DNA of 64,000 nt. It comes from Escherichia coli. Lineage in GTDB: Bacteria > Pseudomonadota > Gammaproteobacteria > Enterobacterales > Enterobacteriaceae. The notes below the pieces were generated by a model. That model searched no databases. It saw nothing but the letters and a program-made list of their open reading frames with translations, and was not told where the DNA came from. Within the stretch, counting starts at the first letter, position 1, and the number at the start of each line of letters is the position of its first letter. Shown here piece after piece: positions 1,870 through 7,287 of the stretch. The position numbers and the translations under genes are program-made. The stretch lies in the NCBI RefSeq assembly GCF_051903065.1, contig NZ_CP178438.1; one strand, 5' to 3'.

Positions 1870-2463
1870 ATGAATGAAATCATTTCTGCAGCAGTTTTAT
1901 TGATCCTGATTATGGATCCGCTCGGAAACCTACCTATTTTCATGTCCGTACTGAAACATACTGAACCGAAAAGACGGCGGGCAATCATGGTGCGAGAGTT
2001 GCTTATTGCTCTCCTGGTGATGCTGGTGTTCCTGTTTGCGGGTGAGAAAATTCTGGCATTTCTCAGCCTGCGAGCAGAAACCGTCTCCATTTCTGGCGGC
2101 ATCATTCTGTTTCTAATTGCCATTAAGATGATTTTCCCCAGCGCTTCAGGAAATAGCAGCGGGCTTCCGGCAGGTGAAGAGCCATTTATCGTGCCGCTGG
2201 CAATTCCGCTGGTCGCCGGGCCAACTATTCTCGCCACGCTGATGTTGTTGTCTCATCAGTACCCGAATCAGATGGGACATCTGGTGATTGCTCTGCTGCT
2301 GGCCTGGGGCGGCACCTTTGTCATCCTGCTACAGTCTTCGCTATTTTTACGTCTGCTGGGCGAGAAAGGGGTGAACGCACTTGAACGCCTGATGGGATTG
2401 ATTCTGGTGATGATGGCAACCCAGATGTTCCTCGACGGCATTCGAATGTGGATGAAGGGGTAA
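1870..2463 (+). CDS. yhgN: MarC-family inner membrane protein YhgN
   Basis: 197-aa hydrophobic ORF MNEIISAAVLLILIMDPLGNLPIF...; position right after asd as in E. coli. Confidence 0.9.
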   Translation: MNEIISAAVLLILIMDPLGNLPIFMSVLKHTEPKRRRAIMVRELLIALLVMLVFLFAGEKILAFLSLRAETVSISGGIILFLIAIKMIFPSASGNSSGLPAGEEPFIVPLAIPLVAGPTILATLMLLSHQYPNQMGHLVIALLLAWGGTFVILLQSSLFLRLLGEKGVNALERLMGLILVMMATQMFLDGIRMWMKG

Positions 2464-2468
2464 GGTTC

Positions 2469-2507
2469 AAACAGGTGCTGCACACAACCAGACGCGGCAC
2501 CTGTTTT
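2469..2507 (+). terminator. putative stem-loop terminator between convergent yhgN and DprA-like gene
   Basis: aaacaggtgc (2469-2478) pairs with gcacctgttt (2497-2506), followed by T-run; loop is long (18 nt), so strength uncertain. Confidence 0.4.
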
Positions 2508-2508
2508 A

Positions 2509-3711
2509 TTACCTGAACTGATAATGACCTTCGCCCAATCGGATAACCCTTCCCTCTTCTTCTGCGCGGTTCAGCCACACACTAATTTGTTCGATGGTTA
2601 AACCAGTACAAGACGCCAGCCTTTCAATACTTATCGATTCCTTTGCAAGGATCGCCAGTTCCGCCACAAAGAGTTGATAAAAATCGACAGGCGTATACGC
2701 GGGCATTACTGCGTAATTTGCGTCATCTTCATGCAGCGAAAACAGTTCTGGTTGAGCGTTACGGAGTGCTCTGTCATACATCAGCCCAGGAACGTCTGGC
2801 AGTCTGATCGTCACATTCTCAGCCTGTTCAGCACTCCATGACGCCCCATTTTCTACTAATCGTGAATTGGCTGATTGCATATCCTGATTTGGTTTAACCT
2901 GCACAGGCAGCCACTGATGTTTTAATGCCTCCATCGCCCCGGTTATCGTTCCACCGGTCATTCCCGCACGTACAACCATTGCGCTTTCAGCAAGGCAATA
3001 AATATATTTATTTCGCGCCATCGCATTGCCGACGGTGAAACGTACCTCTGGGTAAAACGGCGAAATCAACACCAGGTTGCCTGCTATAAGCCCTTCACGC
3101 CATTTCACTAACGTACTCGTTTTTAACAAGCTATCAGCTAATACGCCAACGGCAGTTCCCCCGGCCTCCAGTGCCGACGCCATTGCACATTCATCAATAC
3201 CTCGCGCACCACCAGAGATAACGCAAATCCCCTGTTGGGCCAGTTTCGCGGCCAGTTGTTGGGTATAGCGCAAATCGTCAGTCGGAGCATCTCGCGAGCC
3301 AACAATCGCCATACCTTCCGCTTGCAGTAATGCTTTATTCCCGCAGCCAAATAAAACGGGAGGTGCATCCGTTCGCAATCGGTTTTTCAAGCGAACGGGA
3401 TAATCAGCATCTCCGCGGGTTAAGATCCATAAACCGGCGCGTTGCCACTTATCTACCGCCAACGCCAGACTATGACCACGCGCCAGCAAGCCAAGAATAC
3501 GCTCCTGAGAAATACGCGGATCGCTCCAGCCTGTAAGTTTCTCTTGCGGTTGCGGCACCAGAAGCTCGGCGGGACTGATACGTTGGTGCTTCAGCCATAA
3601 TGCAAACTTCCCCCATTCACTATTACTAAGAGGTTTATACTCACTCGCCGCCGCGCGAGAAAAATCGCTGGTTAGCAGGAGAGTTGCTTGTGCATTGGCT
3701 GAAAGATTCAT
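2509..3711 (-). CDS. DprA/Smf-like (SLOG Rossmann-fold) DNA-processing protein paralog
   Basis: ORF 2509..3804; DprA signature ...AIVGSRDAPTDDL...VISGGARGIDECAMASALEAGGTAVGVLADSL...MARNKYIYCLAESAMVVRAG; start assigned to Met32 (3709-3711), which overlaps the upstream helicase stop in a TGATG arrangement; the alternative start at 3804 would overlap the helicase by 94 nt. Confidence 0.75.
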   Translation of the reverse strand: MNLSANAQATLLLTSDFSRAAASEYKPLSNSEWGKFALWLKHQRISPAELLVPQPQEKLTGWSDPRISQERILGLLARGHSLALAVDKWQRAGLWILTRGDADYPVRLKNRLRTDAPPVLFGCGNKALLQAEGMAIVGSRDAPTDDLRYTQQLAAKLAQQGICVISGGARGIDECAMASALEAGGTAVGVLADSLLKTSTLVKWREGLIAGNLVLISPFYPEVRFTVGNAMARNKYIYCLAESAMVVRAGMTGGTITGAMEALKHQWLPVQVKPNQDMQSANSRLVENGASWSAEQAENVTIRLPDVPGLMYDRALRNAQPELFSLHEDDANYAVMPAYTPVDFYQLFVAELAILAKESISIERLASCTGLTIEQISVWLNRAEEEGRVIRLGEGHYQFR

Positions 3712-5807
3712 CAATTTTTTACCGAGGTAGAAGCAAGGGCAAGAGGATAAACCGTCGGGCAACCTGCCTGGCGTAACAGTGCTGTCAGAACTGTCAGCGT
3801 CCATGCAGAATCCACGATATCGTCAACCAGCAACGCCGGACCAGGCATCAAAGGAGGGGTAATCACAAACGCCCCGTCGAGATTTTGACACTGGTGGAAA
3901 CGGTTTTGCTGCATTTTCTGCGGTGGATTGTCCACGACTTTTTCAATGGCATCAATAAAAGGTAAGCCAAGTTTCGCCGCCAGTCGCCGGGCAAAATCAG
4001 AAACCAGGTCGAGGTGCTTTAATGAAGGAACGCAGCATACCCAGGTTGGTTCAGGATGCGGATTCCAGCGTTGGCGAACCATTTCCGCACATGCCTCCAC
4101 CAGTTCATCACTGAATCGTCCCGTTTTTTTCTCCTGTGCTACCTGCTTTCCCCACCCGGAATCTCCCCAACGAGAAAGGATTCGCCCCGTAGATCCTTGT
4201 AAACTCGCAGGCAAGTTCCCTTTAAATCCGTATTGCGTAAAAGCCCCAGCTGCCACCTGTTTATTGAGATTTAATGGCAGGTCAGCGTGTTTAATAAATA
4301 AGTTTGCCGCATGGAGTAAGCCGCTATCAATGTCGGGCGACAACAACGGACGCTGAAGACAACTGCTACATTTACCACAACGTTCGGCACCTGGCTCATC
4401 GAGTGCGCGGCGCAGAAATTGCATTTTGCACTCCTTGGTCGTGATATAGCTTTCAACGTCTGCCAGCTCACTTTTTCTCTGATTCATCAAATGGTTAATT
4501 CGTTCATGGTCAGGAGAAAAACTGACAATTGTTCTGCGCCATAATTTCTCGGTATACACCACAGGCGATGGATTTTCAGCTACCAATAATTTCAGTGCTT
4601 TTTCTATTTGCCCATAACGGAGATTCGTCCGTTGTTCAATGCCTCGTAAGGTAAGACCGTCATTCACGCTAAGTACGTTGAGTATTTCATGAATTTGTGC
4701 CTCCGCAGGAAAGGCGCTTTCACGGAAGAATTTATGAATAGCACGGTCTTCACTGCCGCAAAGCAGTATGCCAACAGCAGAATCGATACCGCGACCGGCA
4801 CGCCCCACCTGTTGGTAGTAACCAACTATCGAACCTGGCATCTGGTAATGAATAACAAACCCCAAATCCGGTTTGTCAAAGCCCATTCCCAGCGCCGTTG
4901 TCGCAACCAGCACTTTAATTTTATTTGCCAGCAACGCCTGCTCCAGATATTCCCTGGCAGTATTAGAATCTTCCGCGCCTTCACAAGTCACGCCGCTGTA
5001 GTAAGCAAATGCACTGATACCATTTTTCCTTAACCACTCGGCGACAAGTTCGGCATCGCGAGTAGTCAGGGTATAAACAATTCCCGATTTGGAAAACTGA
5101 GGGATAACCGTTGCTAACCATGCCAGACGGGATGACTGTTCACCTAAGACTAAGGCATCAAGCGCCAAACTTTCGCGAGCCAGCGTTCCACGCTGAATCA
5201 CAATGTCACCCAATTGCTGACGGATATCCTCAACGACACGGTTATTCGCTGTCGCGGTTGTACCCAGAACAGGGGTATTCGCAGGTAGTTGGCGCAAAAT
5301 ATCTAATATACGTCGGTAATCCGGGCGAAAATCGTGGCCCCAATCAGAGATGCAGTGCGCCTCGTCGACCACAAGCAAGCCAATACGATCGGCTATAGGA
5401 TATAAAACCGTTTCGATAAAGTCCTGGTTTGCCAAACGTTCCGGGGAAACCAGCAAGCAATCGACCTCACCTTGCAGCAACTTATCGCTAATGCGCTGCC
5501 ATTCTTCTCTGTTTGTAGAATTCAACGTTTCAGCCGTAATACCTAACCGTTCAGCGGCGGCAACCTGGTTACGCATCAGGGCAAGCAAAGGAGAGATGAT
5601 AATTGTCGGGCCAGCGCCGCGATCGCGGAAGATTTTACTGGCGATGAAGTACACAGCACTTTTCCCCCAGCCAGTGCGTTGGACAACCAGCAGTTTTCGC
5701 CGTTGGTTCACCACCGCGTCTATGGCTTCCCATTGCCCTTCCCTGAAAGTAGCGGTGGTATTTCCTAACATCCGCTGTAAAAGCAATTCAGCTGCGTGCT
5801 TTTCCAT
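3711..5807 (-). CDS. RecQ-family SF2 DNA helicase with C-terminal ComF/GntX-like phosphoribosyltransferase-fold domain
   Basis: 698 aa; Walker A QRTGWGKS, DEAH box VVDEAHCISDWGHDFRPDY, TATA motif, QQVGRAGRG arginine finger, Cys4 zinc site C460/C477/C480/C483 (17-3-3 spacing as in RecQ); C-terminal ...GAFVITPP...PALLVDDIVDSAWTL... resembles the PRTase-type nucleotide-binding loop of ComF-family proteins; strong SD (aggag) upstream of ATG at 5805-5807. Confidence 0.8.
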   Translation of the reverse strand: MEKHAAELLLQRMLGNTTATFREGQWEAIDAVVNQRRKLLVVQRTGWGKSAVYFIASKIFRDRGAGPTIIISPLLALMRNQVAAAERLGITAETLNSTNREEWQRISDKLLQGEVDCLLVSPERLANQDFIETVLYPIADRIGLLVVDEAHCISDWGHDFRPDYRRILDILRQLPANTPVLGTTATANNRVVEDIRQQLGDIVIQRGTLARESLALDALVLGEQSSRLAWLATVIPQFSKSGIVYTLTTRDAELVAEWLRKNGISAFAYYSGVTCEGAEDSNTAREYLEQALLANKIKVLVATTALGMGFDKPDLGFVIHYQMPGSIVGYYQQVGRAGRGIDSAVGILLCGSEDRAIHKFFRESAFPAEAQIHEILNVLSVNDGLTLRGIEQRTNLRYGQIEKALKLLVAENPSPVVYTEKLWRRTIVSFSPDHERINHLMNQRKSELADVESYITTKECKMQFLRRALDEPGAERCGKCSSCLQRPLLSPDIDSGLLHAANLFIKHADLPLNLNKQVAAGAFTQYGFKGNLPASLQGSTGRILSRWGDSGWGKQVAQEKKTGRFSDELVEACAEMVRQRWNPHPEPTWVCCVPSLKHLDLVSDFARRLAAKLGLPFIDAIEKVVDNPPQKMQQNRFHQCQNLDGAFVITPPLMPGPALLVDDIVDSAWTLTVLTALLRQAGCPTVYPLALASTSVKN

Positions 5808-5907
5808 CTTTATCTCCTGCGATCTTTAGGCAGTGATTAGAACGGATTATTTGCAGGTAAATTTGCGAGAGAGATCAAAAAGATGAAGAGAGGAGAAAAG
5901 AGAAATG

Positions 5908-5935
5908 AATTACTGCGAGCAAGCTCGCAGTAATT
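5908..5935 (-). terminator. rho-independent terminator downstream of gntU
   Basis: Perfect inverted repeat aattactgcgagc-aa-gctcgcagtaatt; on the minus strand it is followed by a T-rich tract (catttctcttttctcc...). Confidence 0.6.
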
Positions 5936-5946
5936 TGTCGCAGTAA

Positions 5947-7287
5947 TTAACTCAACAGCTGGAACGCAATCATCCCAACGATGGCACCAACAGTGCCGAG
6001 GATGGTTTCCATCATGGTCCAGGTTTTCAGCGTTTCGGCTTCGGTCGCGCCGGTAAATTTACCGAACAACCAGAAACCGGCGTCGTTAACGTGGCTGACA
6101 ACAATCGAACCACCGGCGATACAAATCGACAGCGCCGCCATTTGCGCACCGGAGTAGTTCAGTTGTTCAATGACCGGCATCACCAGCCCCACCGCCGTTA
6201 AACAGGCAACGGTGGCAGACCCCTGAATGATGCGCACTGCAGCTGCCAGCACGAAGCAGGTGATAGCAATCGGCAGGCCCATGCCGGTTAACGCTTCGCC
6301 CAGTGCCGGACCTACGCCAGAGTCAACCAGCACCTGTTTGAACACGCCGCCCGCACCAATCACCAGCAGAATGATCCCCGCCGGTTGCAGCGCGTGACCG
6401 CAAATCTCCATCACTTTGTCTTTTGGCATGCCCTGACGCATTGCCAGGCCATAAATCGCTACCAGACAAGCAACCAGAATCGCGGTAAACGGATGACCAA
6501 TAAACTCGAACCATTCGTAAGCAGTAGAGCCTTCCGGCACAAAACGCGCGGCAATGGTTTTCAGCCCCACCAGCACCAGCGGCAGCAGGATCAGCGACAG
6601 GCTGAATCCGAAGGACGGCATTTTGCCTTCGCCGAGATGCGGCTCGCTGATGTCGTCAGGAATATGCAGCTCAACGTAACGGCTGATGAAGTTACCCCAC
6701 AGCGGCCCGGCAATAATCATTCCCGGAATTGCCGCACACAGGCCAATCAGGATCATCCAGCCAAAATCGGCGTTCATCTGCGATGCCAGCAGCATTGGCG
6801 CTGGCCCTGGCACCAGGAACGCCGCCGCTGCCGCCACGCCTGCGAATAATGGGATTACCAGCTTCACCAGGTTCGTACCGGTGTGGCGCGCCATTGAGAA
6901 AGCAACGCTAATCAGCAGAACAATCGCCACTTCAAAGAACAGCGGTAGCGCACAGACCAGCCCCGCAAGGCCGATGGCATAATGCGCGCGGCTGTGACCG
7001 AAGGATTTAAGCATTTTGACGGCAATCTGATCGACTGCGCCGGTTTCATGTAAGATCTTGCCAAACATAGCTCCCAGGGCGACAACCACCGCCAGGAAGC
7101 CGAGGGTGCCTCCCATCCCTTTTTCCATCGTCGCTGCGATTTTATCGAGCGGCATACCGGAAAAAAGGCCAGCCCCCATGGACACCACCATTAAAGCCAG
7201 GAAAGCGTGCATACGCGCCTTCATGACTAAAAACAGCAGCAGTAAAACAGACCCTACTGCTGTTAAAACAAGCGTTAATGTAGTCAC
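5947..7287 (-). CDS. gntU: low-affinity gluconate transporter (GntP family)
   Basis: 446-aa polytopic membrane protein MTTLTLVLTAVGSVLLLLFLVMKARMHAF...; conserved position upstream of gntK/gntR. Confidence 0.9.
   Translation of the reverse strand: MTTLTLVLTAVGSVLLLLFLVMKARMHAFLALMVVSMGAGLFSGMPLDKIAATMEKGMGGTLGFLAVVVALGAMFGKILHETGAVDQIAVKMLKSFGHSRAHYAIGLAGLVCALPLFFEVAIVLLISVAFSMARHTGTNLVKLVIPLFAGVAAAAAFLVPGPAPMLLASQMNADFGWMILIGLCAAIPGMIIAGPLWGNFISRYVELHIPDDISEPHLGEGKMPSFGFSLSLILLPLVLVGLKTIAARFVPEGSTAYEWFEFIGHPFTAILVACLVAIYGLAMRQGMPKDKVMEICGHALQPAGIILLVIGAGGVFKQVLVDSGVGPALGEALTGMGLPIAITCFVLAAAVRIIQGSATVACLTAVGLVMPVIEQLNYSGAQMAALSICIAGGSIVVSHVNDAGFWLFGKFTGATEAETLKTWTMMETILGTVGAIVGMIAFQLLS

Follow-up and report, generated by a model that had tools for sequence, protein, structure and literature searches.

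The closest described relative of the locus studied here is the RqlH/RqlI pair of extraintestinal pathogenic E. coli F11 (Russell & Mulvey 2015, PMC4670107), where rqlH and rqlI were found by RT-PCR, in strain F11 only, to be co-transcribed as an operon. In the same work the F11 proteins co-immunoprecipitate, with the interaction going through the phosphoribosyltransferase (PRTase) domain, and the toxicity of RqlH is neutralised by RqlI (PMC4670107). RqlI is given there as 400 aa, a construct of residues 1–400 was functional, and RqlI expressed alone from a plasmid also worked, but from the ribosome-binding site of the vector (PMC4670107). RqlHI is the same as PsyrTA, a toxin–antitoxin defence system for which the named sources are Sberro 2013 and Millman 2022, and for which phage protection is reported (bioRxiv 10.1101/2022.05.11.491447; Millman 2022). 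Millman et al. were unable to isolate a ΔpsyrA mutant (bioRxiv 10.1101/2022.05.11.491447). Our literature search found no structural or mechanistic PsyrTA paper giving a stoichiometry.

Two further comparisons are useful. ShosTA likewise pairs a PRTase toxin with a DprA-like antitoxin, with toxicity seen as DNA damage and filamentation (PMC11961720), and the PADLOC ShosA profile matches residues 116–297 of the DprA-like protein studied here (3.1e-27). ShosT, however, lacks the RecQ helicase module that RqlH carries, and ShosTA has been described as a type IV system whose toxin and antitoxin do not interact strongly (PMC11961720), whereas RqlH and RqlI co-immunoprecipitate (PMC4670107). The second comparison is with gene pairs whose stop and start codons overlap by 4 nt or 1 nt (Huber et al. 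2019, PMC6728339; 2023, PMC10666635), among which strict translational coupling was found in 13 of 14 tested pairs. The coupling acts by termination–reinitiation and has disappeared at about 20 nt, and overlaps of this kind are enriched in heteromeric complexes.

We analysed a window of 64,000 nucleotides of E. coli DNA, in which a two-gene island (2464–5946), delimited by genome comparison, separates the stop codon of yhgN from that of gntU and takes the place of the 56-bp yhgN–gntU spacer of a K-12 derivative. Both genes are on the minus strand. The upstream one (3711–5807), identified from its open reading frame and profile matches, encodes a 698-aa RecQ-family helicase with a C-terminal PRTase domain and corresponds to rqlH (psyrT), the toxin gene; the downstream one (2509–3711, counted from the start supported below) encodes a 400-aa DprA-like protein and corresponds to rqlI (psyrA), the antitoxin gene. 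The locus was found in 1641 of 5426 complete E. coli genomes (about 30%), and the allele in the window is 95.8–100% identical to the E. coli alleles that were sampled. Strain EC958 carries rqlHI as F11 does, and rqlH is a pseudogene in some O157 strains.

The two-gene unit is the RqlHI/PsyrTA toxin–antitoxin phage-defence operon of E. coli. The PADLOC PsyrT profile covers residues 3–697 of the helicase (profile positions 5–687 of 689; E=0, 1063 bits), and Pfam finds DEAD and Helicase_C together with weak RecQ_Zn_bind and weak Pribosyltran (605–683) matches, as befits an SF2 helicase of the RecQ family with a PRTase fused to its C-terminal end. The PRPP-loop motif DIVD663 is present, and the numbering of K49, D148 and DIVD663 is identical to that of RqlH from F11. 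The partner, at about 400 aa, is DprA-like, with a PADLOC PsyrA match of 1.5e-202 and a Pfam DNA_processg_A (PF02481) match of 4.4e-51. On their shared strand the toxin gene comes first and is directly followed by the antitoxin gene, an order kept in 79 of 80 related loci. The pair thus has the same proteins as F11, 698 aa and 400 aa with the toxin upstream, and no substantive difference; its identity was already known. The co-function of helicase and DprA-like protein that the original prediction proposed agrees with the published operon RT-PCR, co-immunoprecipitation and toxin neutralisation.

Canonical E. coli RecQ and DprA/Smf share with these proteins the RecQ-family helicase core and the DprA Rossmann-like domain (PF02481), respectively, and both were considered as identities and rejected. 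The helicase passes the RecQ-family subfamily model TIGR00614 (253.7 against a cut-off of 219.8) but falls below the cut-offs of the RecQ equivalogs TIGR01389 (296.6 against 640.2) and PRK11057 (225.9 against 1015). The DprA-like protein scores far below the cut-offs of the DprA equivalogs TIGR00732 (101.7 against 191.15) and PRK10736 (79.7 against 495 bits), so the RefSeq product name "DNA-processing protein DprA" is misleading.

At the junction of the two genes the minus strand reads TCG GTA AAA AAT TGA TGA ATC TTT. The A at 3711 is both the last base of the helicase stop codon TGA (3713–3711) and the first base of an ATG (3711–3709), which is codon 32 (Met32) of the longest DprA-like open reading frame (3804–2509, 431 aa). 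Direct reading thus bears out the TGATG overlap described in the original prediction, which had missed a second TGA in the helicase frame at 3710–3708. The hexamer TGATGA (3708–3713) therefore holds both overlap motifs, the 1-nt TGATG and the 4-nt ATGA, and gives the junction the stop/start geometry of a coupled gene pair (a 1- or 4-nt overlap, or codons a few nt apart). By itself the TGATG pentamer is not significant, because the window contains 278 copies of it, both strands counted. What is above chance, from comparison of the sequences, is the place of the overlap on a start codon defined by homology, together with its conservation across loci.

We surveyed this junction in 79 loci from other genomes and found 49 with ATGA, 18 with TRATG, 4 with abutting codons and 8 with gaps of 1–6 nt. 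A 4-nt or 1-nt overlap is thus present in 67 of the 79, and in all 79 the stop lies within 6 nt of the start. Conservation of ATGA is partly a side effect of the protein, because the conserved Asn33 (AAY) forces ATGA, but Asn33 does not explain why the helicase stop keeps its frame and its position. TGATGA itself is likewise found in the closest non-E. coli relative (L087), and the best explanation of the hexamer in the window is that it also retains the ancestral ATGA overlap of the family. Across Proteobacteria and beyond, the overlap is kept.

Homologs settle where the antitoxin starts and support ATG 3711–3709, for a protein of 400 aa. All 25 aligned homologs (51–72% identical) begin with M-N at Met32, M32 and N33 being invariant, and residues 1–31 of the long open reading frame have no counterpart in any of the 25. 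Conserved residues upstream of Met32, which the original prediction had named as the observation that would count against it, were looked for in these homologs and none were found. The PsyrA profile match covers residues 32–431 of the long frame and profile positions 1–397 of 398, and in every non-E. coli homolog the coverage of the 431-aa query is at most 93%. At the nucleotide level, an upstream in-frame ATG is absent in 76 of the 79 loci and an alternative upstream start in 66, while 49 have an in-frame stop within 60 nt upstream of the start. The TTG codons 15 and 31 of the long frame were also considered as starts and rejected, the codon before the ATG not being conserved as a start in relatives.

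These observations bear on how the two genes are translated. When pairing with the 16S 3′ end is scored, the AGGAG Shine-Dalgarno sequence of the helicase gene (minus strand, 5814–5818) reaches −7.4 kcal/mol, which places it among the best 2.5% of random 20-mers from the window; the pair has no other strong ribosome-binding site. At the rqlI start (3711) the corresponding value is −3.0 kcal/mol, a level that 42% of random 20-mers equal or exceed, and the median at the start in relatives is also −3.0 kcal/mol. A start hidden by RNA structure, as in classical coupling by unfolding, was dropped after a fold test in which the 120 nt around the junction showed no unusual structure (−22.2 kcal/mol, z=+0.59, with 140 of 200 shuffles at least as stable). 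A consensus scan of 2300–6100 found no promoter-like site on the minus strand, the helicase 3′ end included, and none upstream of the helicase either; the scan is crude and counts as weak negative evidence only.

From the conserved overlap, the absent Shine-Dalgarno sequence and the general literature we infer translational coupling of rqlH and rqlI. Ribosomes would load at the strong AGGAG site and translate rqlH, terminate at its UGA and reinitiate on the overlapping AUG of rqlI. Synthesis of the antitoxin would in this way be tied to synthesis of the toxin, and the toxin would rarely be made without antitoxin from the same mRNA. We give a probability of roughly 0.8 to the joint reading in which the locus is the RqlHI/PsyrTA operon, rqlI starts at ATG 3711–3709 and encodes 400 aa, and its translation proceeds by termination–reinitiation. 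The geometry is identical to that of the −4 and −1 pairs of Huber et al. (2019, PMC6728339; 2023, PMC10666635), and the likeness extends to products that interact physically and to a downstream Shine-Dalgarno sequence that is weak or absent; coupling was tested in those pairs and is deduced here, and the two tandem in-frame stops of TGATGA set the E. coli rqlHI junction apart. The fixed stoichiometry that had been read from the overlap does not follow from a stop/start overlap. The arrangement is correct but ordinary, a textbook one that brings no new mechanism.

The strongest competitor, which we nevertheless consider unlikely, accepts ATG 3711 as the start but has free 30S subunits initiate there de novo, so that the overlap reflects compact packing without functional coupling. 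An antitoxin is usually needed in at least the amount of its toxin, and reinitiation alone may fall short of this; its efficiency is usually below 100%, which is awkward for an antitoxin that should not be limiting. Furthermore, 12 of the 79 relatives tolerate abutting codons or gaps of 1–6 nt, and RqlI worked when expressed alone from a plasmid, though with the ribosome-binding site of the vector (PMC4670107). Against this, the Shine-Dalgarno sequence at the rqlI start is no better than background, with the same median in relatives, the promoter scan gave no minus-strand hit within the helicase 3′ end, and in none of the 79 loci are stop and start more than 6 nt apart, a range over which termination–reinitiation is effective and past which it collapses (PMC10666635). 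Some de novo initiation at rqlI may contribute alongside termination–reinitiation.

The RefSeq model, in which RqlI starts at the ATG at 3804 (3802–3804) and has 431 aa, is very improbable and already largely refuted by sequence comparison. As the original prediction stated, such a start gives a 94-nt overlap with the helicase gene. That prediction took the TGATG overlap as an argument against 3804; the start is indeed disfavoured, but by the homologs, and the overlap alone is no argument. In favour of 3804, it is the first ATG of the longest open reading frame, the extension is open in all E. coli alleles examined, and PGAP chose this start in all six E. coli records inspected; the 431-aa and 400-aa forms are each recorded on at least 1000 contigs. 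An ATG at −93 also occurs in 2 of the 79 other loci (L004 and L011, from two other genera). In the closest non-E. coli relative, however, this codon is CTG, no homolog has matching residues, and the 400-aa protein is functional. Many loci gave tblastn matches to query residues 1–430, which we rejected as an artefact and not as conservation of residues 1–31: the conserved frame relation makes the out-of-frame helicase C-terminus look similar, with 32% identity over that part versus 69% in the true frame. The Shine-Dalgarno value at 3804 (−3.1 kcal/mol) is likewise at background level, and Shine-Dalgarno strength alone is uninformative for choosing between the two ATGs.

Codon-phase entropy indicates that the 93-nt stretch at issue (3712–3804), from which the 31 additional residues would come, is coding sequence for the helicase C-terminus alone. 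Mean column entropy there is 1.45, 0.50 and 0.29 bits at helicase positions 3, 1 and 2, and variability is lowest at the third position of the extension frame itself; because the variation sits at helicase third positions, only the helicase frame is under selection. In 33 of 59 relatives the extension frame contains a stop. The ATG at 3804 is itself explained by the conserved helicase Ala668-Trp669 codons (GCA TGG) read one base out of frame. Within E. coli, all six alleles inspected keep this ATG and an open 31-codon extension, as they should in any case, since those bases are held in place by the PRTase motif of the helicase. The single polymorphism in the 93 nt among these alleles, 3786 G>A, leaves the helicase residue unchanged and would turn D into N in the extension. 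Its direction is the expected one, but one substitution in six alleles is too few to count as a test.

Least likely of all is that E. coli uses both starts, for a major 400-aa form and a minor 431-aa isoform specific to the lineage. The two ATGs are there, no stop interrupts the frame in E. coli and neither Shine-Dalgarno sequence is strong, but the extension carries no selection signal, and internal initiation should seldom occur without a Shine-Dalgarno sequence where ribosomes are actively translating another frame.

A more far-reaching form of the termination–reinitiation reading can be proposed because the antitoxin start lacks its own ribosome-binding site and the overlap is so widely kept, namely that RqlI synthesis depends obligatorily on completion of RqlH and that the junction serves as the sensing point of the defence; we regard this as improbable. 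If it were true, phage disturbance of termination, ribosome recycling or reinitiation, or a cut in the mRNA between the genes, would break the link between antitoxin and toxin and unleash the PRTase toxicity.

The more immediate consequence concerns annotation, since the RefSeq/PGAP antitoxin model, with its 431 aa and 94-nt overlap, is very probably 31 residues too long, and the name "DNA-processing protein DprA" suggests a competence protein and not the PsyrA/RqlI antitoxin. The error has spread widely, given that the locus is present in about 30% of complete E. coli genomes. The F11 paper (PMC4670107) discusses neither translational coupling nor the conflicting 431-aa annotation. For the family as a whole, the −4/−1 overlap and the missing Shine-Dalgarno sequence would explain simply, and in a way that can be tested, why the toxin is not produced in the absence of its antitoxin.

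[quoted passage not shown] In that study, co-immunoprecipitation of RqlH with RqlI requires the PRTase domain, and RqlH genotoxicity is PRTase-dependent and neutralized by RqlI. The window's helicase carries K49, D148, and DIVD663 at the exact positions of the residues mutated there. By PADLOC, the profiles PsyrT (E=0, 1063 bits) and PsyrA (1.5e-202) are matched end to end by the upstream and the downstream protein, respectively. Pfam domains in the helicase are DEAD, Helicase_C, a weak RecQ zinc-binding match, and a weak PRTase match, and the downstream protein has DNA_processg_A (DprA); both proteins score far under the canonical RecQ and DprA equivalog cut-offs. PsyrTA (= RqlHI) is counted among anti-phage systems by Millman et al. 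(bioRxiv 10.1101/2022.05.11.491447). Both the system and its 400-aa antitoxin have been described before, so the feature is not new.

The pair forms a two-gene island (2464-5946) that occupies the entire interval separating the stop codons of yhgN and gntU, in the E. coli chromosomal order asd, yhgN, island, gntU, gntK, gntR. Compared with a K-12 derivative, the island stands in place of the whole 56-bp hairpin-containing yhgN-gntU spacer and shares no bases with it. It is found in 1641 of 5426 complete E. coli genomes, with alleles 95.8-100% identical. Each island end has one hairpin (about 2470-2506 and 5908-5935). In the gap between the convergent ends of yhgN and rqlI, the hairpin AACAGGTGC...GCACCTGTT with TTTATTA after it resembles a yhgN terminator; a 12-bp terminator-like hairpin lies 3′ of gntU, ~100 nt before the helicase start. 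A crude consensus scan of 2300-6100 found no consensus site for an operon promoter.

The helicase ORF (698 aa, 5807..3711, minus strand) ends with TGA at 3713-3711, and the longest ORF in the downstream frame (431 aa, 3804..2509, minus strand) overlaps it. From 3730 to 3700 the minus strand reads ...ACC TCG GTA AAA AAT TGA TGA ATC TTT CAG..., where the A at 3711 is both the last base of the helicase TGA and the first base of an ATG (3711-3709) that is codon 32 of the 431-aa ORF. The sequence and ORF listing thus bear out the coordinates, the Met32 numbering, and the 94-nt overlap of the original prediction. A second in-frame helicase TGA (3710-3708) directly follows the first, so the junction (3708-3713, minus strand) is TGATGA and holds both classical overlap motifs. 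The word TGATG is frequent, occurring 278 times in the window when both strands are counted, and by itself uninformative; its position and conservation carry the meaning.

Public records disagree on the RqlI start: the six E. coli RefSeq/PGAP entries inspected all have the 431-aa form, and at least 1000 contigs are recorded with the 400-aa sequence and likewise at least 1000 with the 431-aa one. Four independent lines of sequence comparison, namely homolog N-termini, upstream frames, codon-phase variation, and the origin of ATG 3804, favor ATG 3711 as the probable start, in agreement with the preference originally stated. Coverage of the 431-aa query stays at or below 93% in every non-E. coli homolog, and in an alignment of 25 homologs (51-72% identity) all 25 begin M-N at Met32-Asn33, both residues being invariant; nothing aligns to residues 1-31, where conserved residues would have supported the longer form. 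The PsyrA profile match likewise begins at residue 32. Among 79 loci from other species with both genes present, an in-frame alternative start codon upstream is absent in 66 and an upstream in-frame ATG in 76, while 49 have an in-frame stop within 60 nt upstream of the start.

The 93 nt before ATG 3711 vary as helicase sequence. Column entropy over 60 sequences is 1.45 bits at helicase-frame third positions, 0.50 at first, and 0.29 at second, and in the extension frame variability is lowest at the third position, the reverse of the pattern of a coding frame. Over these 93 nt, relatives share 32% identity in the extension peptide vs 69% in the helicase frame, and stops interrupt the extension frame in 33 of 59 relatives. 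Here six E. coli alleles differ at one site only, 3786 G>A, which leaves the helicase residue unchanged and replaces D with N in the extension. ATG 3804 itself comes from helicase codons Ala668-Trp669 (GCA TGG) in a frame shifted by one base, and relatives have TTG, GTG, or CTG at that position, according to the base that ends the preceding codon.

Across the 79 loci, the junction is ATGA (4-nt overlap) in 49, TAATG or TGATG (1-nt overlap) in 18, a stop abutting ATG in 4, and a gap of 1-6 nt in 8; the relative frame of the two genes is identical in all 67 overlapping loci. The helicase ends ...VKNG-TGA in the closest ATGA-type relatives, Silvania and Klebsiella grimontii, vs ...VKN-TGA-TGA in E. 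coli and its closest relative (locus L087, 72% identity), so a GGA>TGA nonsense change shifted the stop one codon upstream. It reduced the overlap from 4 nt to 1 nt and shortened the helicase by one residue, with the ancestral stop retained as a back-up.

In four metagenome-assembled genomes (loci L063, L064, L073, and L080; two Latescibacterota, Bacterium BMS3Bbin13, and one Gammaproteobacteria), helicase and DprA-like gene share one frame with a lone TAA/TAG abutting ATG, around locus position 3000 in L063, L064, and L073 and at 392 in L080; stop readthrough there would yield a toxin–antitoxin fusion. The taxonomically distant Providencia rettgeri, Chelonobacter oris, gamma proteobacterium HdN1, and a Gammaproteobacteria MAG (L029, L030, L053, L055) have antitoxin N-termini that are almost the same and include a 16-residue insertion (MNVSRFSSADGSLPANGSLSP...), which suggests one allele spread by recent horizontal transfer. 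In E. coli O157 strain Al Ain (L086, 1512-3636), the helicase is annotated as a pseudogene (frameshift, internal stop) and the antitoxin is intact, apparently an orphan left by decay of the toxin.

AGGAG, upstream of the helicase, is the pair's only strong ribosome-binding site; at -7.4 kcal/mol it ranks in the top 2.5% of random 20-mers. At the rqlI start the score is -3.0, which 42% of random 20-mers equal or better and which is also the relatives' median at the antitoxin start. A crude consensus scan found no promoter-like site on the minus strand in the helicase 3′ end, and RNA folding found no unusual structure at the junction (z=+0.59). In published work, 13 of 14 tested pairs with -4 or -1 overlaps were strictly coupled, coupling was lost by about 20 nt spacing, and heteromeric-complex subunits are enriched in such overlaps (PMC6728339, PMC10666635). 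Taken together, the weak rqlI site, the lack of a promoter-like site, the ordinary structure, and the published overlaps make termination–reinitiation the best-supported mechanism. Ribosomes completing the toxin would restart on the antitoxin, so the toxin would rarely be made without it. The reading of the overlap as a coupling arrangement is thus supported by its retention in 67 of 79 loci, the background ribosome-binding score, and the published overlaps, but "fixed stoichiometry" went too far; reinitiation below 100% would give less antitoxin than toxin unless there are other inputs.

RefSeq names the antitoxin (2509-3804; WP_011310318.1 and relatives) "DNA-processing protein DprA", a product well under both DprA equivalog cut-offs whose end-to-end match is to the PsyrA defense profile. 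The canonical dprA/smf is a separate E. coli gene. The practical value of the finding is that it marks the RefSeq RqlI model as very probably over-extended and as misleadingly named.
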